Origin: a virus
Taxonomy: Duplodnaviria > Heunggongvirae > Uroviricota > Caudoviricetes
Direction: 5' to 3' (one strand)
Virus record (IMG/VR): IMGVR_UViG_2690316086_000018
DNA length: 52,397 nt
The notes under the pieces were generated by a model. That model had not been told where the DNA came from, did not search any database, and saw nothing but the letters and a program-made list of their open reading frames with translations. Shown piece by piece: positions 12,466 to 52,397 of this stretch (position 1 is the stretch's first letter; each line of letters opens with the position of its first letter). Both the position numbers and the translations under genes were made by a program.

Positions 12466-12515
12466 GATCTCAAGTGGTAGCTCACTGAATGTGGTGTATA
12501 TAGCGCGGCGATTTT

Positions 12516-12581
12516 TTTGATACCGATTTGCATTTCATTTGATACCGCTGAAAAACGCCGATACGCAACTTATTTGATACT
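12516..12581. repeat. prophage-end repeats, three direct copies of TTTGATAC(C/T) (putative transposase-binding sites, mom end)
   Basis: copies at 12516, 12538, 12573; same motif in inverted orientation at the other prophage end. Confidence 0.5.
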
Positions 12582-12626
12582 AAATCGGCGCTTTTCTTTT
12601 GAGTTTTAGAATGAGTTTTTAAGCGC

Positions 12627-13364
12627 TCATTCACTCTCTTTCAAACCAGTTTTAACTGTTTGTGGTTTTGGGTAAGGCTGGACTTTGAATAGCTTTGTGT
12701 TGAGGCGTTTTCTGGCCCTCTTGTTCAGAAACCGGATGTAACGAAACTGTCGGAACTTATGCACACTGGCTCTGTCGATATTAGCCCTCAGATGTTCACC
12801 TCGTTGTCCGCCTCGTTTAATGGCACTCCTGCAAATCTCGTGATACCACTCGCCATCAAGTTCATAGAATGTTGATTCATGGCTGCCTACATAATCAAAA
12901 TTGCTTGCCTGATACACGACACCAAGACAGCCACAACGCTCATCTGCAAACGACTGAACCCACTGTACCTGCGGATAAAGCTGCCTGATTAGCTTGAGCG
13001 CGTAACTGATTGCCCTTGATTCGGAGTTTCTCGGCATACAGTCATGCATCCATAGCCGGTTAAGCTCCATATATTCTCGGTTCTGCGTACCCGTTACGAC
13101 GCGTGCACCACTGTTTGGGTTAAGGGCGTAACCCCATTGCATTACGCCAACAAGTTCCCGTTCTGAAAATATACCCAGATGAAGGTAGGAATTATTTACG
13201 AAACGGTGGCTGTAATGTTTATTGACGATAACCAGTCTGGCCAGCCAGCAACTTATTGTCTCAACCCGCAACTCACGGGAGCCATAACCAACGATATTGT
13301 CGTTATAGCGAATAAGTTCAGGCGTGCTGATGATACGGGATGTGACTTGCTTTCTGTTCCCCAC
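12627..13364 (-). CDS. mom: Mom-like DNA modification protein
   Basis: 245-aa ORF overlapping the 3' end of a Com-like gene, last gene before prophage end, GATC cluster upstream: the Mu com-mom arrangement. Confidence 0.6.
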
Positions 13365-13518
13365 GACAGGATTTCCTTGTGTATGTGGGGTGCTCTGTGG
13401 CGCTCGGAGATGTGATTTGATTGAGGGTTTTACAGCGCGGACATTTTACTTCCAGATAACTGAAACTGGCCCGTGCCAGTAGCTTATTGCAGTGTCGGCA
13501 CCGTATGTTTCGATACAT
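13318..13518 (-). CDS. com: Com-like zinc-finger translational activator of mom
   Basis: [15 protein letters not shown]...EVKCPRCK...EHPT closely matches remembered Mu Com; start taken at internal ATG. Confidence 0.7.
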
Positions 13519-13565
13519 GGCCGCATAACCTCCTGCTTTGTTGTTGATGCCTTTCTCATGCAATC

Positions 13566-13703
13566 GATCGACAAAAACGATCGATTCGATTTGTTTAATT
13601 GATACAACAAATAGATTTAAAAGTCATCAACAATGATTCAGGGCGGTGATTATTTACTTAAAGAAACGAAGAGTTAGGTGGTGAAAACGATCATAAAATG
13701 ATC
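13566..13703. promoter_or_regulatory. GATC cluster upstream of com-mom (probable Dam-dependent regulatory region)
   Basis: GATC at 13566, 13579, 13689, 13700 embedded in ATCGATCG-type motifs. Confidence 0.5.
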
Positions 13704-13924
13704 ATTTTATTGACTTTTTATACAGTGAAGGTAGGATCGCGCGTATATGTAGTATGTTTCAAATCAACAGGATACTACATAAAAGGGAAACCCAGCATAG
13801 CTGGAACTATGCTGGGTCAATCTGTAAAAACTTGCATCAATGCTTTACTTCGAGCTCGTGGCGTATCCTATGATATTCCCCGGTCTCCTGTAAAGCAGAG
13901 ATGCATAAAAAGGAGATCTTTATC

Positions 13925-14095
13925 ATGGATAAAGAGCCTGTTTGCCCTGCCTGTAAGACTCCCTTACAGCTCATCTATCGCCGTTCTCGATCTCAAAATG
14001 GCAAGACATACAAACCAAAAAATGCTTCCTGTTTCAGGATGCTGATATGTCCTGCCTGTTCTCCCCGGAGGGAAAATACACAAAACGTGCATTAA
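13925..14095 (+). CDS. small zinc-ribbon protein (CPAC...CPAC), possibly Ogr/Delta-like
   Basis: 56-aa ORF with strong aaaaggaga RBS; two CxxC pairs; divergent from com. Confidence 0.3.
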   Translation: MDKEPVCPACKTPLQLIYRRSRSQNGKTYKPKNASCFRMLICPACSPRRENTQNVH

Positions 14096-50392: not shown

Positions 50393-50393
50393 A

Positions 50394-50642
50394 TCATGAC
50401 GCCTTTCTCATATAGCTCTTAACCTGGTATCTACTGGGCCAGATTTCTTCAGGCGATACCCCAAGAGCATCAGCAATTATTTGCTGATACGGTCGGCAAG
50501 GAGTACGTAATACGCTTTTCAGCGAATCCCTGCTGTAACCAGCCTTTAAAGATAAAGAGCGCAGTGATAAGCCAGCCATGTGTAAGCGCGCCTTGATGAT
50601 TTCAGGCGGCCAATCGTGATCTGAAACTTCTCTTCTACTCAT
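50394..50642 (-). CDS. ner: Ner-like DNA-binding regulator
   Basis: 82 aa; DWPPEIIKARLHMAGLSLRSLS...QQIIADALGVSPEEIWPSRY matches Ner/Nlp family. Confidence 0.8.
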   Translation of the reverse strand: MSRREVSDHDWPPEIIKARLHMAGLSLRSLSLKAGYSRDSLKSVLRTPCRPYQQIIADALGVSPEEIWPSRYQVKSYMRKAS

Positions 50643-50832
50643 ACTTCCTCTATTCTAAAAAGTTACCCGCGCGGATATTCGTGCGGATATCTGCACGGGT
50701 AAATAATGCATCACTAAAAATACCAAATCAAGGTATTTTTGGTATTTTGGCTAATTTTTGCTTTTATCCTTATTTTTCAATTGGATAAATAGAAAGAAAC
50801 CTTTCCTTAGAAAAGCACCAAGAGGTATCTTT
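50643..50832. promoter_or_regulatory. divergent repressor/ner operator-promoter region
   Basis: palindrome TTACCCG..CGGGTAA enclosing direct repeat GCGGATAT x2 (50663-50700); AAAATACC-n7-GGTATTTT plus GGTATTTT repeat (50718-50750). Confidence 0.5.
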
Positions 50833-51363
50833 ATGTCGCAGGGAAAAGAACCTATTATTGAACGTATTGGAATGCTTACAAAGCGCTACCCTTCAAGAAG
50901 TGCAGCTGCCAGAGCGTGGGGAATCAATATCAACACATTAAACAGCTATTTCAAGGGAGGACAAACACAACCAGCCCCCAGAGAAAGTATCCTTATACGA
51001 ATTTCTGAAAGTGAAGGAGTTAGTCTTGAGTGGCTTAAAGAGGGCAAGGGTGAATCACCAAACGATGTTGGTATTTGTGGTAATTTTGGTTGTTCTGGTG
51101 ATAAGGGAGATCAACTTACACAGATGCTTTCATTCCTTACGAAAGACGAACGAGAACAGTTAACCAATCTCCTTGCTCGCAAAGGTGTAGAGACGGTTCT
51201 GACACTGCTGGATAAAGAAAACCAGGATTTATTACAACTAGAAGGCAGGAAGCGCCTGGCTGCGTTGATGATTGTAGATATGCCAGACGATTGCGTCAGA
51301 GAGATTTTGGAAAAAACCGAGACAAGTAGGCAATCAAATCCGGTAGAATCTAAAGCGGGTTAG
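50833..51363 (+). CDS. putative prophage repressor (c-like)
   Basis: divergent from ner, adjacent to prophage end; ATG 50833 with aagagg RBS; track ORF starts at 50758. Confidence 0.5.
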   Translation: MSQGKEPIIERIGMLTKRYPSRSAAARAWGININTLNSYFKGGQTQPAPRESILIRISESEGVSLEWLKEGKGESPNDVGICGNFGCSGDKGDQLTQMLSFLTKDEREQLTNLLARKGVETVLTLLDKENQDLLQLEGRKRLAALMIVDMPDDCVREILEKTETSRQSNPVESKAG

Positions 51364-51440
51364 TTTGGCGAGGCTGGCCCGTATGTTAGTTGCCATATAG
51401 ATTTAATGAAGTTTTAAACGCTTTAAAAAGTTGAGATCGC

Positions 51441-51596
51441 AGTATCAAAAGTTTTGCCGATTTTAGAATAAACGATTAATTATTGCACAATCGGTATCAA
51501 ATAGACTTTAAGCGCTCATCCAGACATCACCTGTTTTATTTCAGTATCTTACAGGTGATTTCACCTCCTTTCACTAAAACCCTCGTTGGTATCAAA
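51441..51596. repeat. prophage-end repeats, three inverted copies of TTTGATAC(C/T) (repressor end)
   Basis: agtatcaaa 51441, ggtatcaaa 51493 and 51588, reverse complement of the mom-end motif. Confidence 0.5.
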
Positions 51597-51608
51597 TGAT
51601 TCACCTGG

Positions 51609-52397
51609 TTACATGTAGACCTTCTTAGCCACTTCGTTTTGCAGATCACGCTGGGCTTGTTCAGCAGCTCGCTGTTCCTGTGATTCAATGTCATTCCATT
51701 TAGCACGATGAACACGTTGCATTGCCGGGCGGTTTGTTTCCGTTGCTTTGGCAAGCCAGAATGCTTTCTCTTCAGCGCTGAATGCTTCTTCTGCCTGAGC
51801 AAGGGCATCAGCACATTGTGTCCTGAGAGAACGGTGATCGATACATTCTTCACTGCCTGCGGCTTCAAGGTAGCTGTTTGACATCGTGGCCCATGATTCA
51901 CGCCATTGGATCATTATCTTCTTATCATTCCAGCTTCTGTCTTTTTTACCGAAGCCGTCTGGACCAATGGTTTTCAGGGTTAACATAACATGCGCATGGG
52001 GATTCTTACCGTCCAGATCATGAAATGCGATATCAGCTATCATTCCCTTATCGACAAAGTTTTTCTGGCAGTATTCAGCAACTAATTTTTTCTTGTCATC
52101 ATTGTTGAGTTCTACAGGGATAGCGACATCAAAATAACGGGCTGTTTGTCCGTTGTTCTGGCGTTCCACTCTTTCAACTTCATTCCAGAGTGCTGAGGAA
52201 CTTTCAATAATATGAGCAGGTGCGGAAACAGGAGATAATATAATATGACCATGTAGATCTGTTCTGTGGCTGAAATCATATGTTTCTCCAATGCGATCAT
52301 CTGTAATACGTGTACGGGCATGATAGGCCGCTTTCGCAACGGAAGTCATGCCTTCACTTCGTTTCACAATTTTAAAATCCAGATGAAAAATCGCCAT
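51609..52397 (-). CDS. mobA: MobA/MobL-family (MOBQ) relaxase; last codons and stop supplied by the prophage end
   Basis: MAIFHLDFKIVKRS...AAYHAR (catalytic Tyr motif) and NPHAHVMLT (His motif); ORF stops 4 bp inside the inferred prophage end. Confidence 0.8.
   Translation of the reverse strand: MAIFHLDFKIVKRSEGMTSVAKAAYHARTRITDDRIGETYDFSHRTDLHGHIILSPVSAPAHIIESSSALWNEVERVERQNNGQTARYFDVAIPVELNNDDKKKLVAEYCQKNFVDKGMIADIAFHDLDGKNPHAHVMLTLKTIGPDGFGKKDRSWNDKKIMIQWRESWATMSNSYLEAAGSEECIDHRSLRTQCADALAQAEEAFSAEEKAFWLAKATETNRPAMQRVHRAKWNDIESQEQRAAEQAQRDLQNEVAKKVYM

Follow-up and report, generated by a model that had tools for sequence, protein, structure and literature searches.

The window, by which we mean the whole stretch of 52,397 nucleotides that was analysed, contains a block of ~39 kb with a GC fraction of 0.44-0.60, compared with 0.32-0.43 in its AT-rich flanks. 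The genes of the block lie on the minus strand in the order found in phage Mu (Table 1), with the transposase at one extremity (c end, 51613) and mom at the other (S end, 12499). The layout is the one seen in Mu (NC_000929), namely c, ner-A-B, an early region with gam and gemA, a late activator, lysis, head and tail genes, an invertible tail-fibre segment with gin, and com-mom. No tyrosine integrase was found in the element, where the sole recombinase is a Gin-like serine invertase. An earlier interpretation, made from the letters of the DNA and here called the sequence-only reading, had described an apparently intact Mu-family transposable prophage with Mu-ordered modules and no integrase, embedded in an AT-rich element, and that description is supported by the analysis below. 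ARAGORN reported no tRNA, and no RNA families were found in the window with Rfam at gathering thresholds. PGAP annotates a 'tRNA-OTHER' between genes F and G of ECP19-198, for which no counterpart is detectable here.

Table 1 Positions of the prophage, its genes and termini, and the interrupted host gene
Feature	Coordinates	Strand	Basis or remarks
mobQ relaxase 3' fragment, host island	11773..12498	-	
4-bp target-site duplication TGTA, left copy	12495..12498		Single TGTA in ML775; mobQ restored
Sp18-family Mu-like prophage, 39,115 bp	12499..51613	-	Sakai Sp18 identity; termini common to 8 independent copies
S-end (attR-like) terminus, TATAGCG...	12499..12581	+	Three inward TTTGATACY sites at 12516, 12538 and 12573 (positions 18, 40, 75)
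com and mom, DNA modification	12627..13518	-	com 13318-13518, mom 12627-13364; Pfam Mom 257.8 bits
Cargo between invertase and com	13633..16709		685-aa SASA-esterase/DUF6645 protein 14652-16709 (-); small ORFs
Gin-like serine DNA invertase	16800..17360	-	100% to Sp18-family protein; 75% to Mu Gin
Tail-fibre gene S and invertible host-range segment	17423..19332	-	S 18421-19332
Head completion and contractile tail/baseplate	19332..30581	-	Sheath, tube, tape measure, N, P, gp45-48
Packaging and head	30625..38617	-	gp27, large terminase, portal, F, G, protease I, major head protein T
Lysis genes	39433..40598	-	Endolysin, Rz, Rz1
Mor/C-family late transcription activator	40670..41095	-	100% to Sp18-family protein; 39% to Mu C
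Semi-essential early region	41165..47295	-	Gam 45415-45945; gp11-/gp12-like; GemA/gp16 41165-41674
MuB-like AAA+ transposition activator	47298..48230	-	Mu B 49%, E 9e-98; Phage-MuB_C 88.6 bits and AAA_22
DDE transposase, MuA-like, 696 aa	48302..50392	-	Pfam domains; predicted catalytic D309, D375, E415
Ner-like early regulator	50394..50642	-	Pfam HTH_35 69.5 bits; 43% to Mu Ner
Repressor-like gene, divergent from early operon	50833..51363	+	99.4% to Sp18-family protein
c-end (attL-like) terminus, TGTAACC...	51441..51613	-	Three inward TTTGATACY sites at positions 18, 113 and 165
4-bp target-site duplication TGTA, right copy	51614..51617		Empty site, other copies, mobQ restoration
mobQ 5' fragment	51614..52397	-	261 codons, then 5 nt of phage before the stop

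The genes proposed from the letters as MuA- and MuB-like both proved to be so. The transposase scores 63.8 bits against Pfam Mu-transpos_C and 27.1 bits against HTH_Tnp_Mu_1. Because a phmmer search of the PDB returned no MuA structures, only retroviral integrase cores (E ~1e-4), homology with MuA was shown by direct pairwise BLASTP, which gave 22% identity from end to end and placed the two predicted catalytic aspartates against D269 and D336. The motif around the glutamate aligns with retroviral integrase, and the residue positions were checked. The adjoining activator combines a Phage-MuB_C domain with an AAA domain. The element therefore has the marks of a transposable phage, with a DDE transposase that carries a Mu-type C-terminal domain next to an AAA+ activator, and with insertion at many sites with a short target duplication and without integrase or excisionase. 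The repressor-like gene matches PHROG 3037, transcriptional repressor (E 9.5e-63), and the Mu c repressor has no tblastn match in the element at E<=1e-3. Of the 54 proteins of Mu, 39 have homologues in the element that lie in the same order.

The packaging and head genes are all full length, with 91-100% identity to the Sp18 family and 47-73% to Mu, as are the genes for head completion, tail and baseplate (35-61% to Mu). Inverted repeats at 17423-17604 and 18626-18807 flank the invertible segment, within which lie an alternative S' end (17582-17782, +) and a gene for a U-like chaperone (17862-18386, +); ECP19-198 carries the same segment in the inverted orientation. In the cargo region, four small ORFs have no Pfam match, and three of these were placed by PHROGs, only in families of unknown function. 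PADLOC gave no defence-system match for ten accessory proteins.

A close relative of the element is Sp18 of E. coli O157:H7 Sakai (NC_002695.2, ~5040970-5079724), which shares the gene set and order, the termini, a 4-bp duplication, the invertible segment with its invertase, and com/mom. Nucleotide identity to Sakai Sp18 is 97.5-98.9% in four aligned blocks that cover ~94% of the element. The core genes of Sp18 are all full length here (84-100% protein identity), and of the 57 Sp18-family proteins that were tested, 54 could be mapped at full length or to within 6 residues of it with no frame breaks, a set that includes every transposition, lysis, head and tail gene. The two copies differ in length (39,115 bp here, against 38,755 bp for Sp18), in site (mobQ of the island here and sorM in Sakai) and in two replaced accessory segments, 42494-43165 in the early region and 14393-15898. 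The second of these segments takes in part of the SASA/DUF6645 protein, namely its C-terminal two thirds (60% aa identity to Sp18). They also differ in an accessory gene, the ECs_4996 homologue at 13633-14095 (+), which is broken here by two 1-bp deletions. Identity and synteny along the genome, together with shared termini and a short duplication at variable sites, place the element in the Sp18 lineage. It is thus an already known phage, common in Shiga-toxin-producing E. coli (STEC), in whose genomes relatives of Sp18 include phi804-3 of FRIK804. Of 5426 complete E. coli genomes, 231-232 contain the ends of the element, which lie at many different loci, and some strains have up to 4 copies. 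Two further relatives, LC727881 and LC727895, are Mu-like phages inside Stx phages of CC119 STEC (Microb Genom 2023, PMC10132054), whereas the host element here is a MobQ island. They cover 89-98% of the right half of the element at ~97% identity and have the same ends, but their tail and baseplate regions are only 78-89% identical and several of their early-region segments are unlike those of the element.

To Mu itself the relationship is more distant. Identities to the Mu counterparts are 49% for B, 57% for Gam, 73% for TerL, 66% for T, 75% for Gin, 76% for Mom and 47% for Com, and DNA similarity to Mu and D108 is confined to ~600 bp at 72%. Mu and the element both have three end sites at each end, clustered at the mom end and spread at the c end. 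However, the end sequences (TTTGATACY and the Mu L/R sites) are unrelated, and the repressors are not detectably related. The element also has a single Mor/C-type activator, and its gin and com genes are separated by ~3 kb of additional cargo. Measured strictly against Mu and D108, it shares the gene order and homologous morphogenesis genes (head and tail proteins 35-73% identical), but its transposase and repressor are not close to MuA and Mu c, and it departs from both the 5-bp duplication and the TG...CA termini.

The host element is an AT-rich island that E. coli O103 ML775 also carries, at 99.9% identity (BLAST) and without the phage. The ML775 island serves here as a surrogate for the ancestral empty site. 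The backbone differs from that of ML775 by an indel near 4785, beyond which an ungapped comparison is out of register. The ML775 site reads AATGTGG-TGTA-GACC, with a single TGTA, in the context ...AATGTGGTGTAGACC..., and in silico deletion of 12499-51613 plus one TGTA yields a MobQ relaxase ORF identical to that of ML775 (501/501 aa). These results show that the element entered by DDE transposition rather than site-specific recombination and that it landed in mobQ, the relaxase gene of a mobilisable island rich in AT. In the process 4 bp of target (TGTA) were duplicated, and the relaxase reading frame was broken after codon 261.

The same duplication length and termini recur elsewhere in the family. 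An exact 4-bp duplication and 5'-TG...TA-3' termini were found in 8 of 8 independent copies at 8 different loci, all with ends TGTAACC...GCGCTATA. The c end starts with TG and the S end finishes with ...CTATA-3' in every copy, and the terminal sequences common to the Sp18 lineage are TGTAACCAGG... and ...CGCCGCGCTATA. As a control, the same method applied to the Mu prophage in E. coli W returned 5 bp and TG...CA. A 5-bp duplication produced by shifting one end by a single base was considered and rejected, the extra base matching in 2/8 and 1/8 copies, which is chance level. From the integrated copies we infer a 4-bp stagger. The motif TTTGATACY occurs 8 times against 1.05 expected, with three sites at each end that all point inward, in agreement with the inverted end repeats noted from the letters. 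Their position and orientation mark them as putative transposase-binding sites. S-end sites 1 and 2 are spaced by 22 bp, which is also the spacing of R1-R2 in Mu.

The sequence-only reading had set the boundaries at 12495-51613, with TG and CA termini and an imperfect 5-bp duplication, TGTGG/TGTAG. TG at 12495 and CA at 51613 do fit the canonical Mu rule, and the two pentamers are one base apart, but in the uninterrupted gene of ML775 TGTGG and TGTAG are contiguous, so neither duplicates the other, and the real duplication is the perfect TGTA. The empty site and the restored mobQ ORF instead put the left end 4 bp further in, where the conserved family end (TATAGCGCGG...) begins. A query that starts at 12499 matches at least 228 records from its first base, the match to most other copies ends at that position, and in seven other copies the sequence just beyond TATAGCG depends on the site of insertion. 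The first TTTGATACC site also falls at position 18 from both termini only with the left end at 12499, and with 12495 it is 4 bp out of register with the opposite end. The boundaries 12495-51613 are refuted by the empty site and the restored ORF, and we consider them extremely improbable. The comparison with an uninterrupted copy of the backbone, which had been proposed as a check, thus moves the left boundary and upholds both the nature of the element and its right terminus. At that terminus, CA at 51612-51613, the match to other copies breaks off. An assembly chimera at the junction, or arrival by homologous or site-specific recombination, has an equally slight chance of being correct. A phage repeated up to 4 times in a genome could mislead an assembler, but the 4-bp duplication is present at both junctions, which jointly reconstitute one gene exactly. 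The element also lacks an integrase and any long att-like repeat, and in other genomes the phage occupies mutually unrelated sites.

It is harder to dismiss, though still unlikely, that the prophage only looks whole and is cryptic or defective, either failing to transpose or giving no infectious particles. The twice-frameshifted accessory ORF would fit such a state, as would the present orientation of the invertible segment, which leaves the expressed tail-fibre end without a co-oriented chaperone gene. Completeness was judged from sequence, and a missense or regulatory defect would be compatible with the data. Against a cryptic state, every gene for transposition, regulation, lysis, head and tail has its full length, with 84-100% identity to Sp18-family proteins, and neither the two termini nor any of the six end sites differ from those in other copies. 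The perfect duplication and the 99.9% identity of the flanks also suggest a recent insertion. Sp18 itself was predicted to be intact, its DNA was efficiently packaged, and it was neither circularised nor inducible by mitomycin (PMC2669165). We conclude that 12499-51613 is very probably a transposable Mu-like phage of the Sp18 lineage, complete in appearance and inserted into mobQ by DDE transposition.

By analogy with Mu and Sp18, the life cycle of this Sp18-type prophage could proceed as follows. The divergent repressor would silence the Ner/A/B early operon, and on derepression the MuA-like transposase (D309/D375/E415) would bind the three TTTGATACY sites at each end and, with the MuB-like ATPase, copy the genome by replicative transposition. 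The Mor/C-type activator would then turn on the lysis, head and tail genes, and headful packaging would start from the c end and include flanking host DNA. The Gin-like invertase may flip the tail-fibre segment to switch host range, and Com and Mom may modify the DNA against restriction.

Whether the Sp18 lineage is a distinct transposition variant, with a transposase only 22% identical to MuA, asymmetric TG (c) and TA (mom) termini and a 4-bp stagger, is in our judgement evenly balanced. A 4-bp 'duplication due to insertion' is annotated in GenBank LC727881 and LC727895. No published statement of it was found in the literature searched, where the SfMu paper does not discuss duplications, and the feature may therefore be formally undescribed. 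Duplications of only 5 or 6 bp were reported for Mu and B3, with TG-CA ends in all Mu-/B3-like phages then described (PMC8705779). B3-like phages, with a 6-bp duplication, and Leptospira transposable prophages, with TA-TA ends, likewise lie outside the rule of Mu (PMC8705779); they differ from the element in gene content and transposase type (Tn552-like). These cases indicate that stagger and terminal dinucleotide vary between transposase lineages. The termini of the related Yersinia phage vB_YpM_5 were also considered, where the S end would read ...CTTTA if the spacing is the same, and were set aside because a single circularly permuted record cannot fix the boundaries.

As a prophage, the element adds little to what is known, since Sp18-type phages have already been recorded from hundreds of STEC genomes. 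Their presence inside other mobile elements is known too, with Sp18-like phages in such positions in 6 of 10 cases (PMC10132054). Its insertion is nonetheless a concrete example of one mobile element disabling another: with the MobQ relaxase split, the host island has probably lost self-directed mobilisation. Boundary rules built on TG...CA termini and a 5-bp duplication misplace the ends of this family by a few bases, and the same assumption may lie behind the Sp18 coordinates given for Sakai, which are offset by 1 and 5 bases from the ends described here. For transposition biochemists, the Sp18 family would offer a natural MuA-like enzyme with a different stagger that could be compared with Mu.

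The window is AT-rich from position 1 to ~12,500 and from 51,600 to 52,397 (32–43% G+C) and has 44–60% G+C in the block between, which is full of minus-strand ORFs. A megablast search of complete E. coli genomes with nucleotides 1–12494 found the same flank in one genome, that of the O103 strain ML775 (NZ_CP193495.1; query coverage 100%, identity 99.9%), and related versions of the island in several hundred others. In ML775, the flank continues directly into an intact 501-aa gene annotated as "MobQ family relaxase", with the prophage absent. ML775 is therefore the uninterrupted backbone against which the sequence-only reading had proposed to map the ends of its Mu-family prophage. 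In silico removal of 12499–51613 and one TGTA yields an ORF identical to the ML775 MobQ at 501/501 residues, with mobQ split after codon 261 by the prophage. Other genes of the island code for H-NS-, ComEA-, and AbiGi-family proteins and for lipoproteins; in ML775, the island stops at a tyrosine recombinase adjoining yodB.

Window position 1 corresponds to position 2029641 of the ML775 record, the start of an HTH gene that follows an ISEc8 transposase gene by 149 bp in ML775, and window position 52397 is precisely the mobQ start codon. The window ends appear to fall at gene boundaries, possibly with a contig break beside an IS. The host island also includes 1.3 kb that is AT-rich, dense in repeats, and without genes (Table). 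Its 21-bp tandem units are each an inverted GTTTCC..GGAAAC, its three-copy motif has an expectation of 0, and the copies of its 150-nt direct repeat are 88% identical. This stretch, in which Rfam gave no match, resembles an origin or a transfer origin.

The empty site in ML775 reads ...CTGAATGTGGTGTAGACCTT..., where TGTGG and TGTAG are adjacent. Therefore, these pentamers, previously read as a 5-bp duplication with one mismatch, are not two copies of one sequence but neighbors in the target, and that reading was wrong in kind. The left flank agrees with the empty site to ...GTGGTGTA, ending at 12498, and the right flank agrees from TGTAGACC, beginning at 51614, with only TGTA duplicated. The comparison thus upholds the proposed right end, CA at 51613, and moves the left end, proposed as TG at 12495, by 4 bp to 12499. 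Matches across the family place the left terminus at the same base: a query starting at 12499 was matched from base 1 in at least 228 records, and a query starting at 12495 was mostly matched only from its base 5.

The same termini, 5'-TGTAACCAGG...CGCCGCGCTATA-3', occur in seven further independent copies with exact 4-bp duplications: TAAA in Sakai, TACG in ECP19-198, AGAG in JNE122137, CGTT in 2012C-4502, TGAT in NJS001, TGGA in 2014C-3307, and TGTT in SJ7. Lengthening the repeat by one base on one side fits 2 of the 8 copies, and on the opposite side 1 of 8, which is chance level. Depositors of LC727881 and LC727895 annotated a 4-bp "duplication due to insertion", and the same procedure applied as a control to a genuine Mu prophage in E. 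coli W returned TG...CA ends with the 5-bp duplication GCCGC. In the Sakai record (L003, 472 and 39230), Sp18 is annotated from the G of TGTAACC to 5 bases past ...CTATA; the published Sp18 coordinates are therefore offset from the common ends of the family.

The nonamer TTTGATACY occurs eight times in the window (1.05 expected), and six of these sites lie at the ends, all pointing inward, in agreement with the inverted end repeats noticed earlier. They lie at positions 18, 40, and 75 from the mom end and 18, 113, and 165 from the transposase end, and only a left terminus at 12499 puts the first site in the same register at both ends. The sites are clustered at one end and spread out at the other; this layout and the 22 bp separating the first two sites resemble the R1-R2-R3 and L1...L2-L3 arrangement of Mu. 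We infer that the transposase binds these sites. Yersinia phage vB_YpM_5 (MT374853.1, Muvirus), with an A gene 81% identical in nucleotide sequence to that of the window, has the same end sites, GGTATCAAA/TTTGATAC (L018, 1170–1400). If the spacing is equal, its mom end would finish ...GCGCGCTTTA, also TA, in a record that is circularly permuted and does not fix the termini.

The target duplication is 5 bp in Mu and 6 bp in B3, and all Mu- and B3-like phages described until then had TG-CA ends, with the TA-TA ends of Leptospira elements given as new (PMC8705779). The 4-bp duplication with TG/TA termini is a departure from this background. We found it in GenBank feature tables only and in no paper in the searchable literature; it may be formally undescribed, or described in literature beyond that searchable.

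By sequence identity, termini, and duplication, the element belongs to the Sp18 lineage; the phage is already known, and its site is new. The block's right half is ~97% identical to two GenBank records over 89–98% of the query, both labeled "region of the inserted Bacteriophage Mu-like phage". Among 5426 complete E. coli genomes, 231–232, most of them STEC, have the two ends of the element, at many different loci and in up to four copies per genome; one such copy is Sp18 of O157:H7 Sakai. Whole-element alignment to Sp18 gave 97.5–98.9% identity in four blocks, with two accessory segments replaced. When 57 proteins annotated in Sp18-family copies were mapped on the window, 54 were full length or at most 6 residues short, without frame breaks, and most were 95–100% identical (lowest, an HI1506-related protein, 84%). 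These include the repressor-like protein, Ner, A, B, Gam, GemA, a Mor/C-type activator, endolysin, Rz, and Rz1; gp27, large terminase, portal, F, G, protease, and major head protein; and sheath, tube, tape measure, all baseplate proteins, tail fiber, invertase, Com, and Mom. Those that failed to map cleanly are accessory without exception: one small ORF is missing because its segment is replaced, and the others are the SASA/DUF6645 protein, a DUF1378-like ORF, and the ECs_4996 homolog. Sp18 was predicted to be intact, and its DNA is efficiently packaged, not circularized, and not mitomycin-inducible (Asadulghani et al., PMC2669165). Sp18-like phages occupy variable sites, with 6/10 within other mobile elements (Nakamura et al., PMC10132054).

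The element shares the architecture of Mu and would work in the same way. Homologs of 39 of the 54 Mu proteins are present, all collinear, with identities of 49% for B, 57% for Gam, 73% for TerL (large terminase), 66% for T (major head protein), 75% for Gin, and 76% for Mom; the Mu c repressor had no match in the window at E ≤ 1e-3. Among conserved functions the transposase is the outlier, with 22% identity to MuA over its whole length (pairwise E-value 5e-11). Pfam Mu-transpos_C and HTH_Tnp_Mu_1 both exceed their cut-offs, and alignment predicts a catalytic triad of D309, D375, and E415; a phmmer search of the PDB matched retroviral integrase cores and did not retrieve MuA. The element has no tyrosine integrase, as the sequence-only reading had noted, and a Gin-like invertase is its sole recombinase. 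Overall, that reading's interpretation is supported and its observation partly confirmed. The name Mu-like rather than Mu is appropriate because the element lacks a 5-bp duplication, a CA terminus on the mom side, and close homology in A and c.

Features of the host island and prophage in window coordinates
Feature	Position	Strand	Remark
Repeat-rich stretch	3550–4850
21-bp tandem units	3693–3775
GTGATTG-N7-CAATCAC-GAARTGCTGCT	3916, 4054, 4553		three copies
150-nt direct repeat	4003–4152 and 4502–4651
9-bp array	4752–4793		unit AAATATCAT
Prophage	12499–51613	-	39,115 bp
ECs_4996 homolog	13633–14095	+	1-bp deletions at ~13664 and ~13931 relative to ECP19-198
Segment replaced relative to Sp18	14393–15898
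SASA (sialate O-acetylesterase-type) protein with C-terminal DUF6645	14652–16709	-	685 aa
Invertible segment	17423–18807
182-nt inverted repeats	17423–17604 and 18626–18807
Short alternative S' end	17582–17782	+
U-like fiber-assembly gene	17862–18386	+	sole one in invertible segment
F-G intergenic region	~33347–33467		"tRNA-OTHER" in ECP19-198
Segment replaced relative to Sp18	42494–43165

The SASA/DUF6645 gene lies between the invertase gene and com, where Mu has nothing, and, since a replaced segment covers its 3' part, its product is just 60% identical to ECs_4993. Beside it is a DUF1378-like ORF (59% identical over 56/60 residues). The 154-aa protein ECs_4996 has a zinc-ribbon-like CPAC...CPAC motif at its C terminus; the two deletions break its homolog into out-of-frame pieces, making this homolog the sole apparent pseudogene in the prophage. 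The invertible tail-fiber segment is in reverse orientation in ECP19-198. Its U-like gene runs in the direction of S' rather than of the 303-aa S gene, the one connected at present, so one of the two fiber forms would have no downstream chaperone gene. Between F and G of the sister prophage in ECP19-198 (L004, 17997–18077), PGAP annotated a "tRNA-OTHER"; ARAGORN found no tRNA anywhere in the window.

The insertion mechanism duplicates 4 bp of target. From Mu biology and work on Sp18, ner-A-B would be transcribed early under repressor control, and a transpososome would be built on the six end sites with assistance from the B ATPase. Replication would proceed by replicative transposition, a single Mor/C-family protein would activate the late genes, and DNA would be packaged by headful with host flanks included. 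The invertase would switch host range, and DNA modification would be of the Mom type. The finding is only mildly notable, for the family-wide 4-bp/TA transposition signature and for the inactivation of the island's relaxase.
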